DNA of 50,913 nucleotides from Octopus sinensis. Its lineage: Eukaryota. Where the stretch lies: contig NW_021834210.1 of assembly GCF_006345805.1 (NCBI RefSeq), positions 1 to 50,913 on the forward strand. Reading direction: 5' to 3'. Shown here piece by piece: positions 5,996 to 49,877 of the stretch. Below the pieces are notes generated by a model, which saw only the letters and a program-made list of their open reading frames with translations, was not told where the DNA came from and did no database searches. The first letter of the stretch is position 1, and each line of letters begins with the position of its first letter. Both the position numbers and the translations under genes were made by a program.

Positions 5996-6005
5996 AGTCC
6001 TTTAA

Positions 6006-6419
6006 GGCGGCGAGCTGGCAGAATCGTTAGTACGCCGGGCGAAATGCTAAGCGGTATTTCGTTTGCCGCTGCGTTCTGAGTTCAAATTCCGCCGAGGTCG
6101 ACTTTGCCTTTCATCCTTTCGGGGTCGATTAAATAAGTACCAGTTACGCACTGGGGTCGATACAATCGACTTAATCCGTTTGTCTGTCCTTGTTTTCTCT
6201 CTCTGTGTTTAGCCCCTTGGGGGCAGTAAAGAAATAGGTATTTCGTCTGCCGGTACGTTCTGAGTTCAAATTCTGCCGAGGTCCAGTTTGCCTTTCATCC
6301 TTTCGGGGTCGATAAATTAAGTACCAGTTACGCACTTGGGTCGATATAATCGACATAATCCCTTTGTCTGTCCTTATTTGTCCCCTCTATGTTTAGCCCC
6401 TTGTGGGCAATAAAGAAAT
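6006..6419 (+). mobile_element. tRNA-derived SINE, family B, dimer (head + 2 bodies)
   Basis: Head GGCGGCGAGCTGGCAGAATCG...GAGTTCAAATTCC, central GTCGACTTTGCCTTTCATCCTTTCGGGGTCGAT..AAGTACCAG, tail TTTAGCCCCTTGTGGGCAATAAAGAAAT. The second body restarts at GGTATTTCGTC (6237). Confidence 0.9.
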
Positions 6420-10419: not shown

Positions 10420-10750
10420 GGAAGACGCGTAGCTTAGTGGTTAAGGCTTTCGGCTCATGATTGTAAGGTCGTGAGTTCAATTCCCGGCGACTCGTTGTGT
10501 CCTTGAGCAAGACACTTTATTTCACATTGCTCCAGTCCATTCGGCTGACAAAAATAAGTAGTACCTGTATTTCAAAAGAGCCAGCCTTGTCACATTCTGT
10601 GTCAAGCTGAATCTCTCTGAGAACAACGTTAAGGGTATACGTGTACGTGTCTATGGAGTGCTCAACCATTTGCACGTTAGTTTCACGAGTAAGCTATTCC
10701 GTTGATCGGGTCAACAGGAATCCTTGTCATCGTAACCGACGGAGGGCCAG
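10420..10750 (+). mobile_element. tRNA-derived SINE, family C (CORE-like central domain)
   Basis: TAGCTTAGTGG A box, GAGTTCAATTCC B box, then TTGTGTCCTTGAGCAAGACACTT. Homologous to 39803-40123. Confidence 0.85.
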
Positions 10751-11180: not shown

Positions 11181-11374
11181 AATAACCACATGAAAAGAAA
11201 TATGAAGTCTATCGAAATGTGATAGTGAGATGAATGACGATGGTTGAAGATAGATCAATCCGTGATCTACAGGGACATACACATAAACACAGCCATTTCT
11301 GCATGCACAACATTCGAGTTTCTAAAGTTCAGCAGATATGGAAGATAAAGTTTTATAACATCTCACGCCAACAA

Positions 11375-11590
11375 GGAGGCGAGCTGGCAGAATCGTTAGC
11401 ACGCCGGGCGAAATGCTTAGCAATATTTCGTCTGCCGCTATGTTCTGAGTTCAAATTCCGCCAAGGTCGACTTTGCCTTTCATCCTATTGGGATCGATAA
11501 ATTAAGTACCAGTTGCGTACTGTGGTCGATATAATCAACTGCCCCCCCTCTGCCATAATTTTGGGCCTTGTTCCTAGAGTAGGAAAGAAT
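11375..11590 (+). mobile_element. SINE-B head/core with an alternative 3' tail
   Basis: Same head and core as 6006, but the tail is TTTTGGGCCTTGTTCCTAGAGTAGGAAAGAAT. Approximate TSD ACATCTCACGCCAACAA / ATATCTCACATCAAGAA. Confidence 0.8.
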
Positions 11591-12361: not shown

Positions 12362-12372
12362 TATAGATAGAT

Positions 12373-12459
<87 letters not shown>

Positions 12460-12469
12460 GGTAGGTAGG

Positions 12470-12555
<86 letters not shown>
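12362..12555 (+). repeat. (GATA)n/(GACA)n microsatellite at the 3' flank of LINE copy 1
   Basis: Direct reading of the sequence. Confidence 0.95.
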
Positions 12556-13000
12556 TCTTTCTTTATTAGCCAAACAGAGCTGCACACAGACGGGACAGAT
12601 TACAAAGTAGAGCTTTTCTTTTTGGGGGAGAGGAGAAAAAAAAAGAGGTGGGTTCGGTTTTCGATCAAAAGGGATCGTAAAAGGGAAAGAAGAAAATTTA
12701 GAGGGAGAAAAGGGAGAAAAAAACGAATAGGGATCATGTATCACAGTGTCATGGTGTAAAGTGTAAAGGGGGAAGCAGATAAGGTTTATCCGTGGGAAGA
12801 AAAGCTTACAGAAAAGACTACGGTAAACTCGGTCAATGATGTTACATGTTACCACATTTGTTTTCAAGTAGGTAACCCTCTGTTTTAAATTTTCCGGGTT
12901 CATAGGATTATGCTCAAGGTGGCTTCATCATTCATACGTGCCATCCTTGCTACATTCACCCATCTTTCTTTGAAACATTCGCTAGACAAAACTTGCCTCT
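12556..13000 (-). mobile_element. Tx1-like LINE, 5'-truncated copy 1 (3' UTR + end of ORF2)
   Basis: Colinear with 13112-13668. Truncated at ACTTGCCTCT|ATAGATAG (13000/13001). The sense 3' end reads GGCTAATAAAGAAAGA-TATCTATC. Confidence 0.9.
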
Positions 13001-13097
<97 letters not shown>

Positions 13098-13111
13098 CAG
13101 GTAGATAGATA

Positions 13112-14215
13112 AGTTTCTTTATTGGCCACACAGGGCTGCACACAGATGGGACAAGTTACAAGGTAGAGCTTTTCTTTTGGGGGATGAAGAGAACAAAAAA
13201 CAAAAGAAAAAAAAAAAGGCATGGTGTAGGTTTTCGATCAAGAGGGATCGTAAAAGGGAAGAAAAGAACAAAAAAAAAATTTGAATAAAATAAAAGGAAT
13301 AAAAAGAAAAAAAAAGGAAAAGGAACAAAAGGAAAGAGAAATGAAAAAAGAAGAAAAAAGGGGAAAAAAGGGGGAAGAGGAAAAAAAAAACGATCAATAG
13401 GGATCGTGTATCACAGTGTTATGATATATGATGTAAAGGGGAAAGCAAGTAAGGTTTATCCGTGGGAGGAAAAGCCTATGAAAAAGACCACGGTAACCTT
13501 GGTCAATATTGTTATATGTTACCACATTTGTTTGCAAGTGGGTAACCCTCTGTTTTCAATTTCTGGGTTCATAGGATTATGCTCAAGGTGGCTTCGTCAT
13601 TCATACGTGCCATCCTTGCTACATTCACCCATCTTTTTTTAAAACATTCGCTAGACAAAACTTGCCTCTCTACTCTCACTTTCCTTTTCAAGTGGTACTT
13701 GAAGAAGTTGATGAGAGATTGACCAGAGAGGAAAGTGTTTGTCTCCAATCCTTTCAGACGCGTCCACCAGATACATTCTTTCGCCATAGCCACAAGGATG
13801 ATGAAAATAGCTCTACCTTCCCGTTTGAAGGAAGGAGGCGTGACAATATTGACGATAGACTCAGCTGATAAACCGACTCGTCCCACACGTAACAGCAGTT
13901 GTTCGACATAAGCCCACAGGTCGGAAATTGTTGGACACTGCACGAGTGCGTGCAGAGCGGTTTCGTCGCTCTGACCGCATCTCGGGCAGGTCGGCCCCGT
14001 GTTTCTCGAGCCGTGTCTGTAGAGCTTATCCCGAACGGGTAGCGCTTCTCGGTAGCACTGCCAGGCCAGGGATCTCTGGAAGTTGTCCATGGGCCCTGGC
14101 CCGAAAGTCGTCCTGAACAGGCGGGTCAGGTACTCCTCGTCGACGTCCAGGTTCGCCCCGAGCTCGTCGTCGTACCTCCCCTCCACTAATCCCCTATAGA
14201 ATGCTTTGGTTGTGC
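13112..14215 (-). mobile_element. Tx1-like LINE, 5'-truncated copy 2
   Basis: Encodes the ORF2 C-terminus (13569-14215) including CPRCGQSDETALHALVQC, highly similar to copy 3. Flanked by (GATA)n at 13001-13111 and 14216-14517. Confidence 0.92.
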
Positions 14216-14257
14216 GATAGATAGATAGATAGATAGACACGTAGGTAGGTAGCTAGA

Positions 14258-14293
<36 letters not shown>

Positions 14294-14378
14294 TGTATGT
14301 ATGTATGTATGTAGGTAGGTAGGTAGGTAGGTAGACGGGCAGACAGACATACAGACAGACAAACAGATATATATATAT

Positions 14379-14518
<140 letters not shown>

Positions 14519-14841
14519 CTTTTTATTGTAGCCACACAGGGCTAAACACAGAATAAAAATGGACGAAATACAATGTAGAATTTTTTCTTTTCGAGGTGGG
14601 ATGGGTGGGGCATAAAAAAAATACGTTTGATCATTAGGAATCTGTGGGTTGTGTGGTGTATAAAAAAGCAATATATATATATATATATAAATTTCACAGT
14701 TTAGGAGTAGCCTTGGAAAGAAAAACCTACAAAAAAGACCAAGGTCACCTCAGACAGTTCGTAAAAGAACACATGAGTAAGTCGCCTTACTTCTCGTTGT
14801 CTCTTTTGGTTACAGATTTATGCTTAAAATAGTGTCGTCTT

Positions 14842-17800
14842 TCATACTGACCATTTTGCCACTTTTACCCACTTTTTATTAAAACATTCGTTCGACAAAG
14901 TCTTCCTCTCTATTCTCATCCTCCTTTTCAAGTGGTACTTGGAAAAGTTGACGAGAGACTGACCAGAGAGGAAGGTGTTTGTTTGCAGTCCTTTCAAACG
15001 CGTCCACCACACACATTCTTTCGCCATAGCCATCAGCGTAACGAAAACCGTTTTCCCTTCCCGTTTAAAGGAAGGTGGTGGAACAATATACACGATAGAC
15101 TCGGCCGATAGGCGAGCCCGGCCTACACGTGACAACAGCTGTTCGACGAAGGTCCACAGCTCTGAAATATCTGGACACTGCACGAGTGCGTGCAGAACGG
15201 TTTCATCGCTCTGACCGCATCTCGGGCAGGTCGGTCCGGTGATGATTTTCGAACCGTGTCTGTAGCTCTTCTCTCGAACAGGTAGTGCGTCTCGATAGCA
15301 CTGCCAAGCCAGGGATTTCTGGAAGTTATCCGTAGGCCCCGGCCCGAACGTCGTCCTGAACAGGCGGGTTAGGAATTTCTCGTCGACGCTCAGATTTGCC
15401 CCGAGTGTGTCGTCGGACCTCCCCTCCACTAGTCCTCTATAGAACGCTTTAGTCGTTTGTAAGTTGCACAAGTTTGACCCCGGTCGGCAGAGCTGCTGTA
15501 GAGCTTGGCGACACTCTCGGTGCCAATCGCCCAGTTTCTGTCTCTTCTTGATCCACGTTTGCAGTTCGGTCAGTGAGACGAGCTGCGGGAAGGCGCACCT
15601 CACAAACGGCGCCCACACCTGTTCATCGTCGTCGATGAAGTTCCAGAGATGTCGCAGTCTCAGCGCATGCCTGCGCATCATCACCCACGGTATGCCCAGT
15701 CCTCCATTCAACGGATGTTGACAGCAAATTGACTTCCTCACCATCGGAACGCCACCCTTCCACAGGAAGCGGAAGAGTATGCGTTCCAGTTTGGTGATGG
15801 TGGCGTCGGGACAAGGTACGACGCTCAGGCGGTAATCGATGACGGATGCGATGTACGCGTTCGCCACCTCCGCCCGGCCTTTTAGAGACAGCTTTCTTTC
15901 GACCCATGTTTGGCTGAGAGCGACCACTCTACTCGCGATCTCGTCCCAGTTCTTATCCATTTGGAGGTCCGGACTGAACCAGACCCCGAGCAATTTAACC
16001 GGTCCGTCCGTCCAGCGTCCCACTACTGAGCCGCAGTCGGACGGCATGGGCTTGCTTTTCCAGGTGCCGAGTAGCAAACCCACTGACTTTTCCGGGTTAA
16101 TCTTCGCTCCCGTCACCGTTTCGTATTTTCTTAGTGTCTCGCCTATCATCTGGATGTTTTTGTCGCTCGACACTATGACGGTGACATCATCCGCGTATGC
16201 CGACACGCTCGTCCCGCAACCCAGTTCCCGTGGGATGCCCCTCAGTGTCGCCAGCTTCCGTAGTAGCGGCTCGAGAGTCAATTCATACAGAAGCGCCGAC
16301 AGGGGACACCCCTGACAGACCGAACGCGTGATGTCAAACGGTTTCGACAGGTGACCGTTCACCCGAATCACCGATCGGATGCCGCTATACAAGGCAGCGA
16401 TCCAACCGCGGAAGACGGGACCGAAGCCAGCCGCCCTGAGGACGGCCGCCAAGTACCGATGGTCGACCCTATCGAAGGCTTTAAACTGATCCAAATTGAT
16501 CAGCGCCCCACCCGTGCCTGGATCCTTAACTACCCTGTCCACAATGTAGCGCATCAGATGGAGGTTGTCATGTATGGTTCTGCCCAGCACGGCGCATGTT
16601 TGCGCCCTGTCGACCAGTTTACCAATGACAAGCGCCAACCTCTCGGCTATTACTTTGGCCAAAATTTTCAAATCTGCGTTGAGCAGAGTGATGGGCCTGA
16701 AATTATCTATAAAATTCCCCTTGTTTGGGTTTTCTTCAACAACGTCACTGCACCTTGGCTCACAAAACCGGGGATTCTCCCGTTTTGTTGCCAGTTGCAG
16801 TAGACTGATGCCAAGAGGTCGCCAAACAAGTCTGGCATTTGACAGTACATCTCGTAGGGTAAACCATCCAATCCAGGCGACTTATCCCTCGCGCAGCCCG
16901 CCATCGCATCCCGCACGTCAGCGGCTGTGATGGAACTTTTACAACACTCCGCTTCTCTTGCCGAGAGCCGCGGTAGGTCGGTCAGGCAGGCACTGAAATC
17001 CCTCCCGCGTTCCGACCCACCACTTGCACCAAACAGTCGAGCAAAGTGCTGTTGAAAGGCCTCACACATCCTTTCGGGTTCAAGTAAACTGCATCCCTGT
17101 TGATCTATTAGAGACCGAATGGTGGCTCTGTTGCCACGCTGCGCCTCCGCTACCTGGGCCTCTCGCGCAGCTTCGATCCCTTCGTTACTTAAGGCACGCA
17201 TTTTAGCTCTGACGACGCAACCTTCGTGCTTGGTGTTGAGGGGTTGGTCGAGGGCCATCCTCGCAGCCAGCACGTTGGTTGCGCTGCCAGTGGTAAGTGC
17301 CTCTTCTAGTTTCTTAACCAGGTCTCTCTCTACTCTATTTCGATCTATCGCTAATTCCTTGCTAAACCTAATTGATTCTGATTTTATTGCCATTTTCAGG
17401 GCGAACCACCAGCGGTTGTTAACGACGGCTCCCGTCAGCGCCCTCTTAATTAACTCGCTAATCCGGTTCCTGTAAACCTGTCGCGCTAAGAGCGACGTGT
17501 TCAGTTTCCATTAACCGGGACCCTGTCTATGTGTCTTATCTAAGTCGAGCGTACACGTCACAAATTTGTGATCTGTGTAGCTGACTATTTTAAATTGTGG
17601 ACATCCTACACTATCCCTATCCGCTGTCCTGCATAGAATTCTATCTAGATAAGATCTCGACGATCCGACGCGGTTGTCCAAGTCCACGTTGGCACGTTCG
17701 GATGGTCGAGTCGGAACCTGTCAGACAAATGGAAACGTCTGAGTAGGTCTTTGAGGCACTTACACCCCCTTCTATTCCTATCCATTCCCACATAATCTAG

Positions 17801-18247
17801 ATGCGTGTCCAAGGTAGCGTTCCAATCCCCTACTAACAGTAAAGGTCTAGACGTACCCAGGAAAACCTCTAGACGTCTGAAGAAATCCGCCCGACCCGTT
17901 AAGGACGGTGCATAAACTGCCATCAGACGGAATGCACACCCATTTCTGCCATCCACATCCAAGACAACCAGCCTACCCTCCGGGTCTAGGAATATTGTTC
18001 TTACTTTTACATTTAGACTCTTTCGAAAAAGCACCGCGGTACCTCCACCACCCATGTTCGGCAGACAGGGAGAAAAATAAATGTCGAATTGATCGCCAAA
18101 CATGGACGCGAGGGCCCGCGGCTTGCTGAGTCTGGTTTCACTGATAGCTACTATATCCACGTTCAGTGACTTGATGTCGTTTAGAAGGTAACCTTGCTTC
18201 CAAGCCGACGCCAAGCCACGCGCATTCACACAACCTAATTTAAGCAT
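14842..18247 (-). pseudogene. LINE ORF2: APE endonuclease + reverse transcriptase + CCHC zinc finger (2 frameshifts, 1 stop)
   Basis: APE motifs: NARGL, ISETRL, VYAP, GDWNATLD, SYLDRI, YTDHK. Linker PG*WKLNTSLL (TAA at ~17511-17513). RT motifs: KSPGLDGLP, FRPITLLNADLKILAK, DQFKAFDRVDH, QGCPLS, AYADD. Zn finger CPRCGQSDETVLHALVQC. Frameshifts near 17675 and 16730. Confidence 0.93.
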
Positions 18248-18313
18248 AATTGACGTTTACGAAAATTGTGTTTCACACACTACATTGGAAGAGACAAGAG
18301 GCAAGAGGGAAGG

Positions 18314-20094
18314 TCACTTACTCATTTTGAAAGTTTCATTTTTTTCTTCTTCTTTTGTAGTGTCTTTGAGGGGGTGTTTGTATAGTTTTTTGGAGAGGTA
18401 TCGTTGAAACCCGCCTACCGCATTTGGAAATATTGTTTTCAGTGTATGGTGTTGTGTTTGTGTTATGTGTACAATTCTTATGTGTTTCGGTGGTGTGGTG
18501 CGCGGATGATTGTTTGTCTTAAAGTCATCTTCACAGATGTCCGTGTTGGATGCAATGTAATCCATTAATTTTTTATTGTCTGTGTCTATTGCAGTTAGTT
18601 GTGTGTGTGGTTTTGCGGGTTCATTGATTTTTTGATTGTCTAGGGGGATGCTGTCCGGAGTTAAATATCTCCCTGCTTTACTTCCTTTTTTGGTGGGCTT
18701 TTTTGATATTTTCCTTTTACCCCCTGTGGCTATTTGCCATTCCGTCGAACTTTCGTCGTCCGACGAATCAGAAGGGGGTAAAGGCAAAGCATTTGCGTTA
18801 ATATGTATGCTTGTAGACATTGTTGATGTTTTGTGCGGTGTTTGTGTTGTTGTGGTGTTAGGGGTAGAATTTGTCTTCTCGTCACTGTTTTCTGTCTTTT
18901 TAATTGTCGTCCTCGGTGTTGGTGTTGGTCTATCTTTTGTTGGTTCATATGTTGAATTGGTTGCGACGTTAACGGTGATTGTGTTGGTACTGTTTCTTTT
19001 CTTGGTGATGTTGTTGAGGTTTGTTTGCTGGTTTGTTGTTTTTCTTGGCATTGTTCCATAATTGAGTGTGTTGGTGTTGGTGTTGGTGTTGGAAACAAGG
19101 GTTTTTTATTTGTTTTCTGATTTGTTCTTTCTTGTTTTTTCTGTGCCAGAGCGCACTTGGCAATTAAATGTTCTGGGCTGCCACGGTTGTAGCATCTAGG
19201 CTTTTTGCCTTCTGCTACAATATATAGGCTTTGCCCATTTTCTAAATGGATCCTATCAGGTAGGTTCTCGATAGAGGAGCCCTCAATCTGGATGGTCACT
19301 ACAATTGTTTTACCACCCCAATTGTCGTTTTTGTACACAACGGTTTCTAATATGTTTATCGTTTTCAAATGGTAACAGATTGCCCCTGTTATCCATTTGT
19401 TAGGTATCTCGGGGGGTACATTTTTAATGCTAATTCTACTCACTCTCTGGCCTATGGTACCATGATGATTTCATCATTTTGCAAAGACTGCGTAGAGTGA
19501 GCTTTTGCCACTTCCTGGTTAGGGAAGCGGACCACCACTGTATTAAACTGGGGACCCCAGTTTATATATTCTTTTTTTTTCATTATGTTTTTTTAAACAC
19601 TTTTCTATGTCCGTTTTTGTAATCTGTTCATTTTGTTTTTTGTTTTTTTTTATAATTTTATATATAATTGTCTTATTTTCTATTTGTTCCTTTATGTGTT
19701 GAGGTGTATGCAGCACTAAATCCTGCCCTTGGGTTGTAAATAGTGCTCTCGTTTCTATTAACTCTTCATTCGTAAATGTTATTATTTCTTTTTTCTGACG
19801 CAGAGTGTCAGCGAAATTTACTGGTGTTGTTGATTCTTTTATATTAATATCTTCACTATTAGATGGTAAGATATTTATTTCATTTTTATTGTTGTTCTTC
19901 TTGTTGTTGTTGTTTTTGTTAATAGTATTCGCGTGAGTTTCATTTTTATCATTTATGTTGGTCGTGGTGGTGGTGGTGGTGGTGGTGGTGGAGGTGGTGG
20001 TGGTGGTAGCAGTAGTAGTCTCGTTGTTGTTGTTGTTAGTGGTGGTGGTGGTGACAGGGCTGTTACCGCAAGTGGTTGCAGCGTTCACCACCAC
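18314..20094 (-). pseudogene. LINE ORF1 (RRM-like region + degenerate single zinc knuckle + T/N/K-rich tail), frameshifted
   Basis: The track pieces 19543-20094, 18730-19443 and 18314-19051 join into one ORF1. RISIKNVPPEIP...LPDRIHLE...YIVAEGKKPRCYNRGSPEHLIAKC is the Tx1/L1-type ORF1 pattern, with CX2CX4HX4C carrying one C>R change. True start uncertain. Confidence 0.8.
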
Positions 20095-20427
20095 GTCACT
20101 CAGGTTTGTCTTTGTCGAATGTGTGTGCGTGCATAAGTTCTTTTTTTTTCTCCTAGTGTTTCAATTCTAGGAAAATACTGGTCCATAAAGGAACGCGACC
20201 AGCGTTCTACAATAAAATTTCTCGACATTTTTTAATGTCGAGAAGAAAAATATACAATATAATTAGAGGTGAAACTGCCCCTAGGGGCGAATTCCTCCTT
20301 TGGAAAAGCACTCAAACGAAAGTTGGGTGCCTTACACACCTTATTTACAAAAATGTACACAAAATATGGGCTATAAATAGTCAAAATAAACGATTACCTT
20401 CGGAGCCGAAGTGACAACACGTCCGTC

Positions 20428-20590
<163 letters not shown>

Positions 20591-21559: not shown

Positions 21560-22315
21560 GCACAACAGCTTCCACAAGGACATGTGTTACATCAAAAATT
21601 CTTGGTTGGGGATGCAAATCCTCTCATTCACGTACGACATAATGCGGCAGCAGCATAGAGTTGAAGCGTCCATCTCTTTCTTCTCTCAATGTAGAATGAG
21701 GAAAATTGGATGTTGAGGTAATGTAAATAAATAAATACATATATAGAGGTGAGGATGGAGGGGCGAGAGTTCGGGACGAGGGATAAAAAATGTATAAAAA
21801 GTGTAAGTATAGAATAATATAAAAATGTAGAGGATAAAGGGTTGTAAGTAGATGTAAAGGGGGTATAAAGAAATATAAAGTAAAAATAGAAATAGAAATA
21901 AAAGTAAAAAAGCCTGATAAAAACATGATAAAAGTGTAAAAGAATGTAAAGATAAGGGATGTATAGAGGTTATGGACCAAGCATGGTGGTCAGGAGATTG
22001 ATAAAATTTAGTTGTAGAATTGTCAGTACATCATCAGTTTCGTCTGGGGACTTAATGCGTTGTAAATCAGAGCTGATGAGCATTTAATCTGGTTCCTTGA
22101 ATTAAATGGACTTCTAGTACATACATATCATCATGGATATATACACCCACATACACGCGTACATATACGCCTCCAAGCCTATAAGCATACACACGCACTC
22201 GCGTGTAAACACGTACATAAACACACACGCACCCACACGCACGCGCGTACACACACATACATACAACAGAATATCCGCATATATACACGGACATTACGCG
22301 CGTACACGCTCACAT

Positions 22316-23052
22316 GTATATACGCGCGCCCATCACTACATACACACACGTATATGCCCACGCCTCTAGGTCCAGGTATAAGATATTAAAGGATGTGTAT
22401 AAGAACGTATGTAAAGAATCCCGTACTCATGTCAATACGCGCACGCACACACGGCTGTGTGTCCGTATGTGCGTGCACATATACCCTCATATACACACAC
22501 ATTTTTATTTTTATTTTTAATTTTATTTTTACTTTTATTCTACTTCCATTTATTCTCATTTTCATTTTCATCCCTTACCTTAACTCTTATAATTTTTATA
22601 ATTCTTATACTTCATTTCTAACTATTACATTGTATTTCTTATTTTATACTGTATTTTTTATTTCTAATCTTTACCCTTACCCTCATTCTTACCCCTAACT
22701 TATCGCTTTATACCTCTATATATGTTTATTTACTTACCTATGGATCCACCTTTTGAATATACGAGCGTCCGCGTACGTGTGTATACGCATACATACATAT
22801 GCACGCGCATATATGTACATGCATACTTCGATATCTTATAGCTATACCCATGTGCGCGTGTGTCTCTGTGTGTGTATATGAGGGTATATGTGCACGCACA
22901 TACGGACACACAGCCGTGTGTGCGTGCGCGTATTGACATGAGTACGGGATTCTTTACATACGTTCTTATACACATCCTTTAATATCTTATACCTGGACCT
23001 AGAGGCGTGGGCATATACGTGTGTGTATGTAGTGATGGGCGCGCGTATATAC
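22316..23052. repeat. 186-bp apparently perfect inverted repeat (22316-22501 / 22867-23052)
   Basis: The arms are reverse complements by eye. The ORF track gives the same peptide (MCIRTYVKNPVLMSIRARTHG...) on both strands. Confidence 0.9.
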
Positions 23053-23339
23053 TTGTATGTATGTATGTATGTATGAATGTATGTATGTATGTATGTATGT
23101 ATGTATGTATGTATGTATGTATGTATGTATGTATGTATGTATGTATGTATGCTTGATCTTATTAGTAAATAGTTTGATATGTAATTCATATCTGAAGCAA
23201 TCTATCAACAGCTAAAATGCTATTAATCTGTTACTGTGATTGTTTGGTCCCGAGATTAGCTCAAAATGAGATAACCAATAATTTTAAGCCACACGTTTTT
23301 CGGGGCTTTTGTTGTTTTTCTTTCACAAACCTAGTAAGG

Positions 23340-27363: not shown

Positions 27364-27376
27364 TATATAACATAAG

Positions 27377-27568
27377 TCGGCGAGCTGGCAGAAACTTTAG
27401 CACGCCTGGCGAAATGCGTCGCCGTATTTCGTCTGCTGTTACGTTCTGAGTTCAAATTCCTCCGAGGTCGAATTTGCCTTTCATCCTTTCGATGTAATCG
27501 ACTTAATCTGTTTGTCTGTCCTTGTTTGTCCTCTCTGTGTTTAGCTCCTTGTGGGTAGTAAAGAAATA
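27377..27568 (+). mobile_element. SINE-B monomer (small internal deletion)
   Basis: GGCGAGCTGGCAGAAAC...CTTGTGGGTAGTAAAGAAATA. Confidence 0.88.
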
Positions 27569-31769: not shown

Positions 31770-32440
31770 GGCATAGGAGTGACTGTGTGGTAAGTAGCTT
31801 GCTTACGAACCGCATGGTTCAGAGTTCAGCCCCACTGTGTGGAACCTTGGGCAAGTGTCTTCTACTCTAGCCTCGGGCCGACCAAAGTCTTGTGAGTGAA
31901 TTTGGTAGACAGAAACTGAAAGAAGCCCGTCGTATATATGTATATGTATGTATATATGTGTGTATATCTTTGTGTATCTTTGTTTGTCCCCCAACATCGC
32001 TTGACAACCTATTTCTTTACTACCCACAAGGGGCTAAACACAGAGAGGACAAACAAGGACAGACAAACGGATTAAGTCGATTATATCGACCCCAGTGCGT
32101 AACTAGTACTTAATTTATCGACCCCGAAAGGATGAAAGGCAAAGTCGACCTCGGCGGAATTCGAACTCAGAACGTAACGGCTGACGAAATACCACGAAGC
32201 ATTTCGCCCGGCGTTCTAACGTTTCTGCCAGCTCGCCGCCTTATACATAACATCACTTGACAACCGATGCTGGTGTGCTTACGTCGCTGTAACTTAGCGG
32301 TTCGTCAACACAGACCGATAGAGTAAGTACTCGCCTTACAAAGAATGTCCTGGGGTCGATTTGCACGACTAAAGGCGGTGCTCCAGCATGGCCACAATCA
32401 AATGACTGAAACAAGTAAAAGAGTAAAGAGTAAAGAGTGT
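31770..32440 (+). mobile_element. SINE-A interrupted by a SINE-B insertion
   Basis: SINE-A 5' half at 31770-32009 and 3' half at 32249-32440. Confidence 0.88.
32010..32242 (-). mobile_element. SINE-B monomer nested in SINE-A with a 17-bp TSD
   Basis: TSD AACATCGCTTGACAACC (31993-32009) / AACATCACTTGACAACC (32249-32265). Confidence 0.92.
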
Positions 32441-34232: not shown

Positions 34233-35439
34233 TAGATATATAGACATAGATATATATATAATATACATATACTATATATATATATAGATTTATATATATA
34301 ATTATATATATATAATATATATATATACTATACATATACCTAATATAATATATATATATATATATAATATATATATGTCATATGTATATGTAAATATGTA
34401 TTTATGCATATAATATATATACATATATATACACAAACCAACACACACACCACACACACATATATATGCTTTTAAGTATATAAGGCGGGCTTCTTTCTGC
34501 TCTCATCTACCAAATAAACTCACAAGTCTTTTAAGAGCACACACCTGTTGTAGAAGACACCTGTCCAAGGTGCCACAAAGCGAGGCTAAACCTGAAATTT
34601 CTCAATTTATATTTTCAACTTATTCAATCGATCACGTTTTCGTAGCTATTTTTGTAAGAGAATCTAATCAAACCCCAATAAGAAGGCCAATATATTACAT
34701 ATAAACGTGTGTGTATGTGTGTGTGTGGAGAAAGAGAGAGAGGGAGAGAGAGAAAGAGAGAAACAGAGAGAGAGAGAGAGAAAAGAAGTATTTCAGCAAC
34801 AGCCTATCCGTAAGAAGTTTCATTAAATGCAAGGGAGGTTACTCTCAGAAACAATTTATAAAGGGAAGTAACTTGATAGGACATTTGTAAGTTGCTTCCC
34901 TTGATAATTACATTAGCTTTTCTTTGACATTGTTTCCCCTTTACAATTGCTTGAGTTAATTCCCTTGGCAATTCTTTTTTTTTTTGTACACAAAAGCTTC
35001 AAGTTTTAAGGCGTTGGAGAATTTCTTTAAAAGGTAAACATTTTGCCACCTCCTAAAGGATAAGCAGCAAAGAGCGATCTTGGCACAATTTGAAGCAAGC
35101 ATATAAAGCCGAAATTTATACGGCTAAGTACTTCATCCGGTGTGCTATCGATCCACCGGCTGGTCGCCTTCTTAGCAATCGTAAATAAAAATGAATTTTC
35201 TTATAGATATAGGTACATTTACAAGATTTACAGAGGCACTGATCACAACTTAAATTAAAATTAATAATTAAATGATAAACACCAAACAATTTGTGACTCT
35301 TTCTTTTTTATTAAAAATAATCTTCACGTAATTCCAGGTTCTTTGACACTGAGAAATATTTAGGGTGAATGTCTTGTACATTATTTATATCTATGGGTAA
35401 CTGACTGGTTAGAAGCTTGTGGGGTGGGGCGTGGGTGGG

Positions 35440-36870
35440 TGTGTAAATATATATGTAACATATATTCGTATATAACGGGCTTCTGCACAATTTTGTGTAT
35501 GTGTGTGTGTCTGTGTGTGTGTGCGTGTGTGTAAATATATAGTAACATATATTCATTATATAACGGGCTTCTGACAATTTGTGTATGTGTGTGTGTCTGT
35601 GTGTGTGTGCGTGGTGTTAAATGTATATGTAATATATATTCTATAACGGGCTTCTGCACAATTTTGTGTATGTGTGTGCGTGTGTGTAAATATATATGTA
35701 ACTATATTGTATAACGGGCTTCTGCACAATTTTGTGTCTGTGTGTGTGTCTGTGTGTTGTGCGTGTGTAAAAATATATATGTAACATATATTCGTATATA
35801 ACGGGCTTCTGCACAATTTTGTGTATGTGTGTGTGTCTGTGTGTGTGTGCGTGCGTGTAAATGTATATGTAACATATATTCGTATATAACGGGCTTCTGC
35901 ACAATTTTGTGTATGTGTGTGTGCTGTGTGTGTGTGTGCCGTGTGTGTAAATAATAGTAACATATATCGTATATACGGGCTTCTGCACCAAATTTGTGTA
36001 TGTGTGTGTGTGTGTGTGTGTGCGTGCGTGTAAATATATATGTAACATATATTCGTATATAACGGCGCTTCTGCACAATTTTGTGTATGTGTGTGTGTCT
36101 GTGTGTGTGTGCGTGCGTGTAAATGTATATGTAATATATCGTATATAACGGGCTTCTGCACAATTTTGTGTATGTGTGGTGTATGTGTGTGTGTGCGTGC
36201 GTGTAAATATATATGTAACATATATTCGTATATAACGGGCTTCTGCACAATTTTGTGTATGTGTTGTGTCTGTGTGTGTGCGTGTGTGTAAATGTATATG
36301 TAACATATATTCGTATATAAAGGGCTTCTGCACAATTTTGTGTATGTGTTGGTGTGTCTGTGTGTGTGTGCGTGCGTGTAAATAGATATGTACATAATTC
36401 GTATATAACGGGCTTCTGCACAATTTTGTGTATGTGTGGTCTGTGTGTGTGTGCGTGCGTGTAAATGTATATGTAACATATATTCGTATATAACGGGCTT
36501 CTGCACAATTTTGTGTATGTGTGTGTGTCTGTGTGTGTGTGCGTGCGTGTAAATATATATGTAACATATATTCGTATATAACGGGCTTCTGCACAATTTT
36601 GTGTATGTGTGTGTGTCTGTGTGTGTGTGCGTGTGTGTAAATGTATATGTAACATATATTCGTATATAACGGGCTTCTGCACAATTTTGTGTATGTGTGT
36701 GTGTCTGTGTGTGTGTGCGTGTGTGTAAATATATATGTAACATATATTCGTATATAACGGGCTTTTGCACAATTTTGTGTGTGCATCCGTGTATATATGT
36801 GTGTGTGTGTAAATGTGTAAATATATATGTAACATAGTCATATATAACGGGCTTCTGCACAATTTTGTGT
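35440..36870 (+). repeat. Tandem satellite, ~87-bp unit, ~17 copies
   Basis: Unit GTAAATATATATGTAACATATATTCGTATATAACGGGCTTCTGCACAATTTTGTGTAT(GT)n. The ACGGGCTTC core recurs from ~35475 to ~36850. Confidence 0.95.
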
Positions 36871-37324
36871 TTGCGTGTGTGTGTTTGCGTCTATGTGTGT
36901 GCGTGTGTGCGTGTGTGCGTGTGTACGTGTGCGTGCATGTGTGTGTGAGTGCCTTTGTGTGTTCGTGTATATGTGTGTGTGTGTGTGCGGGCTGTGGGGG
37001 TGGTGCGTGTTTGCCTGTGTGTTGATATTAAATCAAGACTAGGAAACCTCTATGCGATCGTCTGGTCGTTCCAGGAGCTGAACAACAAAACCAAATATGA
37101 TCGGTTCTGAGAAGATATTCTTCAAAAAAGAAATCAATTTACTTTTCGAGAATCGGTAGAGCATCGAATAGACGGGTTCTCAGTTTTTGTTCCACTCTCT
37201 GCACTCTCAGTTCGATCCTCACCGAGGTCATCTTTACCTTTCGTCATTTCAGTATTGTTACAAATAAAGTGACTGAAAGTGTAAGAACGACAAACAGAAC
37301 ACTACACGATATTTATTTATTTAC

Positions 37325-43860: not shown

Positions 43861-44016
43861 TTGTTTGCCAACATAACATGGCTGTCCTGGTTTAGGGCGA
43901 ATGTTGCTGTAATTTAGCCCCAGGAGACATCGTCTCCAGCTGGCTATACGACACGATCTGTGTCCTTATATTTTCGAACAAGGGAATCTAGCATCCCCAC
44001 TCAGCTCAAAACAATA

Positions 44017-44061
44017 TCCGTATATCGCAATTTCCGGGTTATTTCTCTTCATCAGCACAGA
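44017..44061 (-). ncRNA. Minimal type I hammerhead (left arm of the palindrome)
   Basis: TCTGTG-CTGATGA-A-GAG aaataa CCC-G-GAAA-TTGCGA-T-A-TACGGA. Confidence 0.65.
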
Positions 44062-44067
44062 ATAATT

Positions 44068-44110
44068 GTTCGGCTGATGAAGGGAAATAACCCGGAAATC
44101 GCGATACAGA
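44068..44110 (+). ncRNA. Minimal type I hammerhead (right arm of the palindrome)
   Basis: CTGATGA(44074-44080)-A-GGG aaataa CCC-G-GAAA-TCGCGA-T-A; helix III ATCGCGAT is palindromic. Confidence 0.7.
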
Positions 44111-44299
44111 GATATTGTTTTTAGCTAAGTGGGAGTCCTAGATTCCCTTGTTCGAAAATATAAGGACACAGATCGTGTCGTATAGCCAGCTGGAGACGAT
44201 GTCTCCTGGGGCTAAATTGCAGTAACATTCTTCCTAAATCTGGACTGCCATGTTATGTTGGCTAACAATATTTACTCTAATGGTATTTTATTATTACAA

Positions 44300-44529
44300 G
44301 GCGGTGAGCTGGCAGAAACGTTAGCACGCCGGGCTAAATGCTTAGCGGTATTTCGTCTGTGTTACGTTGTGAGTTCGAATTCCGCCGACGTCGACTTTGC
44401 CTTTCATCCTTTCGGGGTCGATAAATCAAGTACCAGTTACGCACTGGGGTCGATGTAATCGACTTAATACCTATGTCTGTCCTTGTTTGTCCCCTCTGTG
44501 TTTAGCCCCTTGTGGGTAATAAAGAAATA
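44300..44529 (+). mobile_element. SINE-B monomer with a 15-bp TSD
   Basis: TSD GGTATTTTATTATTA (44282-44296) / GGTATTTGATTATTA (44530-44544). Confidence 0.92.
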
Positions 44530-45732
44530 GGTATTTGATTATTATATTTTATATTTCAGTGTGCGCCTTAAGACACTCGCTTCATAAACTGTCGACTGGC
44601 AAACACAGCGATTTCAACTCTGAGAACATTGCGCTCCCTAGTGCTACCGAAGCAGTGTTGATATTACTAGGGAATATCTGGGTTGTTTTGGCTTACATCG
44701 TAGTCCCTTTTTTACCTCCTTCATCCATACAGCCACCAAACGAGAGACTGAAGAGATCAGCAACTTAGAATAACTGCATAAGGCATTATGTGCTAGGAGT
44801 GTTACGTCATTGTTTTTGTTTTTTTCCGAGGCGAAAATGAGAAACTATTAAATAAAATGAAACATTATCTAACTATAAAAATTCGTTGAGTGGGGTCAAG
44901 TTTAGAATATTGTTCAGGTGCTACTAACGGATGTTATGCCTTGCCCGAATTGGTTGTACAAAAAAAAAAAAATAAATAAAATTTACCCGGATGTGCGACG
45001 CATCCAATGGAAACTTCTAGATCCATTTGCTGTAATAATAAGTAACAGGATGTTTTGTGACATGTGTGGACTGCTTTAAAAAGAACGTTTGTGATGTTTA
45101 TAACTGGGCCACGAGAGAGAAACTCTTTGGTGCGCAGGAGATTAGATAGATATATGTATTGCCACTCGTGATTTAATGATTGCAATTAGTCGATGATGTA
45201 AAAAATAACTGTAAAAATTGCTATGGAAACGTTTGCAGATTTTATCGGATGTATTCTTTAAAAGGAAAGAAATTATATCTTCAGGGATTCAATAACAGTC
45301 TTCATACTTTCTTTCTTTCACCGAATCGCCATTTCATTTCCATGGTGTTCTCTGCCATCTCGAGAGCTCTTCTTATGCTTCGTTACCAACAGCGGTAGCT
45401 GGGGTGCATGAAGAATTAGATTCTCTGAAATACATAACAACATGTGAAGAAACCGGCTTTTGTAGTGTAAACTTCTTCGCCAGCTGCATTAAAGGCAGCC
45501 GAGTTTTACAGAGGAACATTTTATTCAAAATCCTGTACAGTATGGCAGTAAACCAAACCATTCTCACAGCAGGACACTTTTCGTTCTCCCAATTCTAGTA
45601 AATGATATTTCATGCATATAAACCTTCTTCCACGAAAAGATAGCTTAAACTGTGCTCTAAATGGCGGTGTAATCAAATCCTGTTTTATGGACTCAACCAT
45701 GTTCTAAAATAAGTCGAAAGGTAAGCTACTAT

Positions 45733-45959: not shown

Positions 45960-47220
45960 ACGATATGGATAGACGGACAGACTGTAATGTTCAGTAAGAA
46001 GTATAAGGCTGCGATGTGTAACGTACGTCTACTTAGGGCGAACCCTAAGTAGATGCACTCCTTCACCTCCTCGATTTCATCGCTTCCCAACTCTATTAAG
46101 CCATGCGCTACGTCTTCCGATCTCATATATTTTGCTCAAGGCGACGTGTTGGCAGAAACATTAGCACGCCGGGCGAAATGCGTAGCCGTATTTCGTCTGC
46201 CGTTACGTTCTCAGTTCAAATTCCGCCGAGGTCGACTTTGCCTTTTATCCTTTCGCGGTCGATAAATTAAGTACCAGTTACGCACTGGGGTCGATGTAAT
46301 CGACTTAATCCGTCTGTCTGTCCTTGTTTGTGTCCTCTGTGTTTAGCCCCTTGTGGGCAGTAAAGAAATCTAAATAGATATTTCGTCTGCCGTTACGTTC
46401 TGAGTTCAAATTCGTCCCCGGTTCGTCTTTGCCTTTCATCCTTTCGGGGTCGATAAATTAAGTACCATTACGCCGGGGTCGATGTAATCGACTTAATCCG
46501 TCTGTCTGTCCTTGTTTGTGTCCTCTGTGTTTAGCCCCTTGTGGGCAGTAAAGAAATCTAAATAGATATTTCGTCTGCCGTTACGTTCTGAGTTCAAATT
46601 CCGCCGAGGTCGTCTTTGCCTTTCATCCTTTCGGGGTCGATAAATTAAGTACCAGTTACGCACTGGGGTCGATGTAATCGACTTAATCCGTCTGTCTGTC
46701 CTTGTTTGTGTCCTCTGTGTTTAGCCCCTTGTGGGCAGTAAAGAAATATGTATTTTGTTCAAGTATTTATTGACCTTTTTCTTTCCTTTAAAAATCAGCA
46801 CGAACTTTCCCGACAACCCAATAAATAGTTTACACTTTTATTTGCATGGTCATTCATGGCCATTTTCAGCAGGTAATGTCTCTGGTTCGACGTCATGTGT
46901 CTCTATTATCAACCTAAAAATTCTTAAGGTAATTATATAATTTTCTTTAGCAGCAGAAAAATATATTCGATCGGAAGACATAGCGATTCATTTTCAGGCC
47001 TACTAAGCAATAAGTATCCAGCTTTGACGGCATGGTCTACAGCTGGTCAGTGATGTGTACAATGTCACCTGCGAACCGGAGTTGTGTCCAGAGATGACAT
47101 TTTCTAGCCATGCGGTAAAGATCTTTGGAAAGATGGCCGCTCCTTGTTTGACACTTTTCCCAACTGGAGTCCTCACTGGTGATGATAGCAGAGGCATATC
47201 TGTCGTGCATCCACAGTTCG
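45960..47220 (-). mobile_element. RTE-type LINE RT remnant, interrupted by a SINE-B trimer
   Basis: VGKSVKQGAAIFPKIFTAWLE and LRFAGDIV (46990-47200) plus KYMRS..IEEVKECIYLG (46030-46135). Confidence 0.7.
46140..46748 (+). mobile_element. SINE-B trimer
   Basis: Bodies restart at 46377 and 46565. One TSD surrounds the whole array: TATATTTTGCTCAAG (46126-46140) / TGTATTTTGTTCAAG (46749-46763). Confidence 0.92.
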
Positions 47221-48091: not shown

Positions 48092-48844
48092 TATTTCTTT
48101 ATTGCCCACAAGGGGCTAAACATAGAGGAGACAAACAAGGACACACAAACGGATTAAGTCGATTATATCGACCCCAGTGCGTAACTGGTACTTGATTTAT
48201 CGACCCGGAAAAGATGAAAGGCAAAGTCGACCTTGGCGGAATTTGAACTCAGAACATAACGGCAGACGAAATATCTATTTCTTTACTACCATCAAGGGGC
48301 TAAACACAGAGAGGACAATCAAGGACAGATAAACGGATTAAGTCGATTATATTGGCCCCAGTGCGTAAGTGGTACTTATTTAATCGACCCTGAAAGGATG
48401 AAAGGCAAAGTCGACCTCGGCGGAATTTGAACTGAGAACGTAGTGGCAGACGAAATACCTATTTCTTTACTACCCACAAGGGGCTAAACACAGAGAGGAA
48501 AAAAAGGACAGACAAACGGAACTGGTACTTACTTAATCGACCCCGAAAGGATGAAAGGCAAAGTCGACCTCGGCGGAATCTGAACTCAGAACGTAACGGC
48601 AGACGAAATACCTCTTTCTTTACTACCCACAAGGGGCTAAACACAGAGAAGATAAACAAGGACAGACAAACGGATTAAGTCGATTTTATCGACCCCAGTG
48701 CGTAACTGGTACATATTTAATCGACTCCAAAAGGATGAAATGCAAAGTCGACCTCGGTGGAATTTGAACTCGGAACGTAACGGCAGACGAAATACGGCTA
48801 CGCATTTCGCCCGGCGTGCTGACGTTTCTGCCAGCTCGCCACCG
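48092..48844 (-). mobile_element. SINE-B tetramer
   Basis: Junctions at 48275/6, 48459/60 and 48612/3. TSD CTTGCACGATTTCT (48078-48091) / CTTGCACGGTTTCT (48845-48858). Confidence 0.92.
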
Positions 48845-49389: not shown

Positions 49390-49610
49390 TAATCTTTTCT
49401 ACAATAGATACAAGGCCTGAAATTTAGAGGTGGGTTGGGGCTAGTCGATTATTTCAACATAAGTGGTCAAGCGTTACTTATTTCGTCGACCCCGAAAGGA
49501 TGAAAAGCAAAGTTGACCTCGGTTGAATTTGAACTCAGAACGTAAAGACGGACGAAATGCTGCAAAGCATTTTTCCCGACGCGGTAACGATTCTGCTAGC
49601 TCACCGTCTT
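49390..49610 (-). mobile_element. SINE-B head/core with the alternative tail seen at 11375
   Basis: The sense tail TTTCAGGCCTTGTATCTATTGTAGAAAAGATT matches the tail at 11560-11590. Confidence 0.78.
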
Positions 49611-49877
49611 AAAGTCATTGAAGTGTACTTTCAAATTTTGGCACAAGGCCAGCAATTTTAGGGGGTAAGCTGATTACATCACCGTTAAATAAAGGGGACG
49701 GTCATTTTCATAGCATTTTTGTTTGTCTTAATAACTGACGAGATGCCGGAGCAGAATTCCACCCCGACATCCAAAACTCGGAGTTTTATTATGGCAACCG
49801 ACAGATTGTCACATTTAAATTTAATATATATATATATAACATATATTTATATATATATATATACATATATATAATAT

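Follow-up and report, generated by a model that had tools for sequence, protein, structure and literature searches.

The stretch analysed here (the window) comprises 50,913 nucleotides of Octopus sinensis (assembly GCF_006345805.1, contig NW_021834210.1, positions 1–50,913, forward strand). It holds three related copies of a Tx1-like long interspersed element (LINE) stacked within GATA repeats, and several copies of SINE-B, a non-coding short interspersed element (SINE) of ~235 nt that is retroposed with target-site duplications and 5′ truncation. Here we find that the tail of SINE-B is homologous to the 3′ ends of Tx1-like LINEs and suggest that SINE-B is probably mobilised in trans by the lineage of a second such LINE, family E, and not by the LINE family of the window. 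The LINE copies, their open reading frames (ORFs) and the microsatellites around them are as follows.

12364–12557, no strand: (GATA)n/(TATC)n array, the target on the 3′ side of copy 1
12558–13003, minus: LINE copy 1, a short 5′-truncated copy of a sister TATC-targeting subfamily
13001–13113, no strand: (GATA)n array between copies 1 and 2
13114–14216, minus: LINE copy 2, 5′-truncated, of the (TATC)n-targeting Tx1-like family
13114–13163, minus: 3′-terminal module of copy 2, homologous to the SINE-B tail, with a pyrimidine box, a likely hairpin and an A-rich end
14217–14517, no strand: GATA-rich microsatellite between copies 2 and 3
14518–20427, minus: LINE copy 3, a full-length, frame-broken TATC-targeting Tx1-like element
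17645–18256 (endonuclease), 16707–17510 and 14842–16881 (reverse transcriptase, zf-RVT), minus: ORF2 pieces of copy 3
18314–20160, minus: upstream ORF pieces of copy 3
20428–20532, no strand: (GATA)n array at the 5′ end of copy 3

Endonuclease, reverse transcriptase (RT) and zf-RVT domains were detected in copy 3 with Pfam. A search of the 2.7-Gb host genome with this family returned 1433 candidates, of which 40 were scored and 30 loci fetched; the terminus is constant across these 30 loci and is thus a fixed part of the family. In these loci 27 of 29 3′ ends lie in TATC repeats, which make up 0.24% of sampled DNA, and so do 21 of the 24 distinct points of 5′ truncation. Because they stand at both ends of truncated copies, the repeat is the target and not a tail, and the window family is a (TATC)n specialist. 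The SINE features of the window are listed below.

6004–6419, plus: two-unit SINE-B array, with its junction (6236/6237) at SINE position 53
11373–11575, plus: SINE head and core with an unrelated tail, the tail-swap control
27374–27568, plus: internally deleted SINE-B copy
32011–32244, minus: solitary SINE-B with a long duplication, the position reference for SINE numbering
44282–44296, plus: 5′ copy of a 15-bp target-site duplication, starting with the family E target motif
44297–44529, plus: the SINE-B copy cited in the preliminary description of this DNA, with its tail at 44481–44527 and the family E site between 44346 and 44347
44530–44544, plus: 3′ copy of the 15-bp duplication, with one mismatch
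46138–46751, plus: three-unit SINE-B array, junctions at the position-53 site
48092–48843, minus: four-unit SINE-B array, junctions at the position-53 site

A random sample of the genome (80 evenly chosen 10-kb stretches, 799,700 bases) contained 76 tail ends, 67 of SINE-B and nine of the TATC-type LINE, which by extrapolation gives ~230,000 copies of SINE-B. A- and B-box-like motifs can be seen by eye in the SINE-B head, and a closing 5′–3′ stem occurs in both folded heads; as to a tRNA origin, ARAGORN and Rfam made no tRNA call. The core presumably resembles the Meta domain. The same head and core are also found joined to an unrelated tail whose end consists of ATT repeats, which marks the SINE-B tail as a swapped module. 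This other variant (window 11373–11575 and 49443–49611, and many random loci) ends in, and often sits within, ATT repeats; we would guess at a partner of the Dong/R4 type.

The preliminary description had aligned the sense end of copy 2 with the SINE-B tail at 40 of 47 identities plus one 3-nt gap. A global alignment of 13114–13163 (minus strand) with 44481–44527 reproduces this count, with seven mismatches and a common end point, and copy 3 does share exactly the 13-nt stretch that had been named. The end of copy 2 was also matched when the SINE was compared with the window by blastn (80% over 50 columns, E 4.6e-7). To place this match in the wider genome, a zf-RVT search gave 24,042 candidates, and 192 C-terminal fragments from several searches fell into 75 groups at 88% identity; many of these groups are single decayed copies, so that the real families are fewer. 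An end could be called in 52 of the 75. Common to the LINE ends are a pyrimidine box and an A-rich terminus, with no poly(A), on either side of a middle that varies, and 17 alignment columns are at least 90% conserved across 40 ends. The presence of the module across dozens of Tx1-like lineages makes the tail ancestral to the LINEs and leads us to reject a captured SINE fragment, one of the cases that the preliminary description had set against its own proposal. Among non-SINE tail matches of at least 19 bits in 0.8 Mb of evenly spaced genome sample, none had a non-Tx1 source. Comparison of these sequences supports the derivation of the SINE-B tail from a Tx1-like LINE 3′ end.

Just before the terminus, 30 of 43 family ends (the 52 less nine with offset or false ends) contain a Watson–Crick stem of at least four pairs, against a mean of 10.3 and a maximum of 22 in 300 shuffled runs; since the families are related, the count carries no probability. 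The stem sequences differ among the family ends, and a hairpin in the terminal module is likely.

The best match of ORF2 in the PDB is human L1 ORF2p (E 2e-64, vs 2e-20 for R2), and the L1-superfamily features of an APE endonuclease, an RT and a C-terminal zinc motif were found by Pfam in both copy 3 and family E. Ten RTs from the genome form one clade (Shimodaira–Hasegawa-like approximate likelihood-ratio test support 100) within a group (91) that holds an element with a ZCCHC3-type zinc-knuckle ORF1, apart from the Transposase_22-bearing L1s. A zinc-knuckle ORF1 is a feature of the Tx1 clade; Pfam detected none in the broken ORF1 pieces of copy 3. From this tree, which is without named Tx1 references, Tx1 membership of the octopus clade is likely. 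RT identity to family E is 60–64% for the window family and 78% for family A. Target-sequence specificity is frequent in the Tx1 clade (PMC4494074, in part) and is seen here in the (TATC)n family, in families E and C, and in a copy at a U1 small nuclear RNA (snRNA) gene.

Family E is 5.35 kb long, with an intact ORF2 of 1134 aa and a zinc-knuckle ORF1 (zf-CCHC over the Pfam cut-off), and it inserts into independent SINE copies at position 53 with a duplication of ~15 bp. All 12 full-length copies have SINE positions 1–67 on the 5′ side and position 53 onward on the 3′ side, a duplication of ~15 bp of the SINE target as read from blast coordinates, and the first base of the duplication agrees on both sides in 12 of 12. 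The flanking SINE heads are 85.7% alike between loci, the LINE 5′ ends 99.4%. Altogether 41 of 42 loci, or 38 of 39 distinct places, end at the position-53 site, and the single exceptional locus begins with the same target motif. The site itself falls within an imperfect palindrome of the SINE head, in one of its arms (window 44331–44356). The E–SINE junction is crossed by 33 nt in one contig from run X2, which differs at 10 of 503 letters, and by 30 nt, below the tool's bar, in run X16; such contigs cannot show expression, and no RNA run is listed among those carrying the sequence. Family E sequence is present at 95–100% of words in runs X15–X20, which carry six organism labels.

SINE-B itself has a junction at position 53 in 13 of 51 independent loci. 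There are ~109 position-53 sites in 1.6 M strand-bases, for which the chance expectation is far below one SINE-B junction. Outside these junctions 26 of 40 ends carry duplications (median 14.5 bp; control 25/800), and outside sense-strand SINE junctions nine of 42 ends lie within one mismatch of the E target hexamer (background 0.5%, p 7e-13). A signature of site and duplication length is thus shared between SINE-B and family E, and is absent for the TATC family. Several SINE-B arrays terminate in an older SINE copy bearing the other tail, which points to insertion into a foreign host. SINE-B flanks fall into three classes, one of them AT-rich. At three loci (L065, L067, L123) SINE-B has entered the core of another SINE copy in reverse orientation, each time at the same site, which resembles the position-53 motif.

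The median duplication of SINE-B is close to the ~15 bp of E. SINE-B copies diverge from the column majority by a median of 5.7% (2.3–12%, 55 copies) and the top-scoring E copies by 0.3%, in a sample biased to young ones. We took 20 loci from an endonuclease search for comparison: ten are E-type copies at 92–99%, all of which begin at the position-53 site; five are older E copies (89–92% to young E, with another 5′ region), at position 53 in all three that keep their 3′ end; and five more distant loci are not at this site. At L364 and L378 a SINE-B unit lies immediately 5′ of an older E copy at position 53. The older copies at the site, together with these two loci, suggest that position-53 targeting is old enough to overlap the spread of SINE-B.

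SINE position 19 is a second hot spot, with the SINE-B junction at five of 51 loci. A 1.75-kb ORF1-only Tx1 derivative (557 candidates) carries the same tail module and is followed by SINE position 19 in seven of 30 loci, and in most others by the next unit of its own tandem array. These half-L1-like arrays reach about nine units (L381–L410), and some adjoin copies of family E or D. A single tail base sorts SINE-B: variant T has 32 site-53-like ends and one site-19-like, variant C one and ten (p 5e-8, for ends that are not independent and with 23 in neither class). It is likely that a second Tx1 machinery serves the other tail variant at position 19. Family D is not supported as its autonomous driver, as ten of 11 fetched loci flank a different repeat and one is without an end; no such driver was found among these loci, and only L071 adjoins the ORF1-only element. 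The family D loci (L412–L421, L090) share one site in an unidentified repeat.

The reading that we think probable, on the strength of these sequence comparisons, is that SINE-B has a Tx1-homologous tail and is mobilised in trans by the family E lineage. RNA polymerase III would make the SINE-B RNA, and ORF2p would bind its terminal module (hairpin and A-rich end); the endonuclease would nick the position-53 site with a ~15-nt stagger, and target-primed reverse transcription would follow. Where the target is a SINE, the 5′ end could be joined by homology, giving head-(body-tail)n arrays, and every SINE copy added would provide the LINE with a further landing site. Driver and passenger thus likely feed each other. 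Whether this amounts to a closed loop, in which Tx1 lineages with a clade-wide, poly(A)-free module amplify a SINE to ~200,000 copies and land in it, two lineages splitting positions 19 and 53 with a SINE subfamily each, we would put at an even chance.

A number of observations weigh against assigning SINE-B to the family E lineage. Its tail is not the top match, ranking 7, 14 and 33 among 57 ends compared over the last 32, 47 and 62 nt; relatives of family A come first over the last 32 and 47 nt, family B over the last 62, and none of the 57 reaches SINE-to-SINE similarity. The common 3′-terminal sequence with the same end point therefore holds at the level of the clade, and no single family matches the whole tail. 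No LINE with the whole ~62-nt tail was found with four protein queries, one Pfam query and the fetched 3′ ends, a search without a genome-wide scan for tail-bearing non-SINE loci, so that a better donor may exist; its best profile score was 36.5 bits, as against 60–80 for most SINE copies. Family E is ~97% site-specific, whereas for SINE-B position 53 accounts for roughly one locus in four, and the base after the SINE tail there is G in 18 of 18 sampled junctions, whereas young E uses G and C about equally. The counts of SINE-B ends are not fully independent, and some arrays hold identical units, which implies that those arrays grew by local duplication. As the best-scoring E copies are far younger than SINE-B, the bulk of the SINE has to be attributed to older E copies, and the sample holds few of these. 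With regard to the hairpin, RNAalifold gave no consensus structure for a 40-row MAFFT alignment of the ends, an alignment that does not bring the stems into register; folding the tails one at a time gave no significant result (z −1.5, +0.4, +0.1). Finally, family C targets another SINE on which a Tx1-like tail was not found, a case showing that targeting a SINE does not alone imply partnership.

The alternative that fares best, though we consider it rather unlikely, makes SINE-B a generalist passenger: several Tx1 families would read the shared module, much of the spread would be due to a less site-specific lineage such as family A or to an extinct donor of the whole tail, and E would account only for part. 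The module is indeed common to the whole clade, the family A relatives that lead the tail ranking over the shorter lengths also give the best hairpin match, about 65% of SINE-B loci are at neither hot spot, and SINE-B has three classes of flank. Yet the dispersed SINE-B sites still resemble the E target, and GGT starts two of 19 family A flanks as against 13 of 42 dispersed SINE ends. The TATC family, moreover, is abundant (nine ends in 0.8 Mb) yet leaves no SINE footprint, which argues that recognition of the module is not open to all families.

We regard as improbable a second alternative, in which the SINE makes the position-53 preference itself: read-through transcripts of arrays would pair with matching target DNA and be used by any Tx1 enzyme, the site use of E being a separate matter. 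G follows the tail also in arrays whose first unit has C, and site choice can be reinforced by target sequence that is transcribed along with the element, a point discussed in PMC4494074 (in part). This explanation, however, would need SINE and LINE to have arrived separately at one nucleotide with an equal duplication length, and to have done so again at position 19; and at L123, L252 and L364 the tail is followed by C, as expected of a host-derived base. Much less probable still is the strict form of the earlier proposal, that the (TATC)n family of the window mobilises SINE-B. This family has the 40/47 tail match and is abundant and young, and there is an AT-rich class of SINE flanks. It is largely refuted as the driver by the absence of TATC next to any of the 67 SINE-B ends of the random sample, against 27 of 29 LINE ends, and its tail ranks only 14, 21 and 23 of 57 over the three lengths. 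Of the partnership first described, then, the origin of the SINE tail in a Tx1-like end stands; the choice of the window family or a close relative as driver does not hold, given its (TATC)n specificity, middling tail and distance from E in the RT. Nor is sequence-specific 3′ recognition as unusual for the L1 superfamily as had been stated, since stringent tails are known in maize, sorghum and Chlamydomonas (PMC3747384, in part). That low-complexity 3′ ends converged to give the match, or that one LINE captured a piece of a SINE, deserves almost no credence: the tail is short and its A-rich terminal motif resembles a polyadenylation signal, but the blastn E-value, the 17 conserved columns, the occurrence of the SINE head and core with an unrelated tail, and the lack of poly(A) after the tail all speak against it.

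Further members of the radiation have their own flanks. Family C (L139–L141, L170, L335–L360; ORF up to 1137 aa) enters a different tRNA-like SINE at a single site in its head, and the 3′ module of the family has an additional segment after the hairpin. At a single locus (L091:2228–2391) the end of a Tx1-like copy is followed at once by a complete U1 snRNA gene (Rfam RF00003, 125 bits), and a U1-targeting family is possible. Fixed flanks in repeats characterise further families (L092, L095, L096; L103, L111, L114, L118–L120, L124, L125; L222, L226, L237; L218, L219), with no Rfam match among those tested. Old Tx1-like ends lie beside ATT or ATC repeats at L049:8271–8340, L327 and L296, which suggests other microsatellite targets. 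Elsewhere in the window there is a 196-nt inverted-repeat element (43861–44268), which matches the flanks of one Tx1-like family (L150–L152, L158, L163, L167, L169), a second inverted arm pair (22303–23065), a tandem array with a unit of ~88 bp (35333–36878), and an ARAGORN tRNA-Met call (10422–10494) that resembles the head of another repeat.

If the assignment to family E is correct, an animal genome holds a stringent-tail Tx1/SINE pair, with a LINE that increases the number of its own target sites. The L1 superfamily's sequence-specific 3′ recognition would extend to an animal Tx1 radiation, a repeat that is among the most abundant in the genome would have a named driver, and a LINE targeting the SINE that it spreads would provide a feedback model, open to test, for both the abundance of targets and the tandem SINE arrays. 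The radiation comprises dozens of related endonucleases (RT 60–79% identical) with differing targets (microsatellite, SINEs, U1 gene, other repeats), and its many near-identical copies with an open ORF2 offer a natural series for studying how an APE endonuclease changes its target and how ORF2p chooses RNA without poly(A).

We did not find the Tx1/SINE-B pair in the literature; Repbase, Dfam, SINEBase, the 1994 octopus SINE paper and most supplements were outside this search and may record it. One octopus annotation reports mostly unclassified SINEs together with 13 L1-Tx1 families of recent activity, and the word 'target' is absent from the main text (PMC13282606, in part). In the HCD SINEs of molluscs, as here, a common head and core can bear different LINE-derived tails, of 35–61 nt, and tandem arrays occur; their reported partners, however, are CR1, CR1-Zenon, L2 and Nimb, and the arrays are ascribed to recombination between duplications (PMC11481361, PMC4824008, PMC4758252, each in part). 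Tx1 is not mentioned in the main text of PMC11481361 or PMC4824008, so far as these were covered. SINEs with tails of the L1 clade are three among 58 pairs, and a Tx1 pair is absent from the parts of Table 1 covered (PMC3747384). The pairs ZmSINE2/3–LINE1-1_ZM and SINEX-3_CR–L1-1_CR join an L1-superfamily LINE to a SINE through ~45–50 conserved terminal nt with a hairpin, as proposed here, but are of plants and algae and of the L1 clade, and have simple-repeat ends, unlike SINE-B (PMC3747384, in part). The 1.75-kb element recalls HAL1 (half-L1), a non-autonomous ORF1-only derivative, and differs from it in its zinc-knuckle-type ORF1, Tx1 tail module, site specificity and tandem arrays (PMC5753468, in part). 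Kibi, Koshi and the crocodilian (TTCC)n and (TTTC)n Tx1 families are microsatellite-specific like the window family, whose target is (TATC)n (PMC4494074, in part). Another close system, from parts of the same source, is the crocodilian SINEU/Tx1-Mar, in which the SINE was assigned to its Tx1 partner by a common target site and which, as here, shows tandem insertions. The specificity of SINEU for that site is lower than one might expect, 13–23% in SINEU-1/2 and 90% in SINEU-3; SINEU-1/2 resemble SINE-B in being far less specific than the LINE. SINEU ends in poly(A), no LINE with its 3′ end was found and its target is a Mariner element, whereas in SINE-B tail homology and site coincide and the target is a SINE family.
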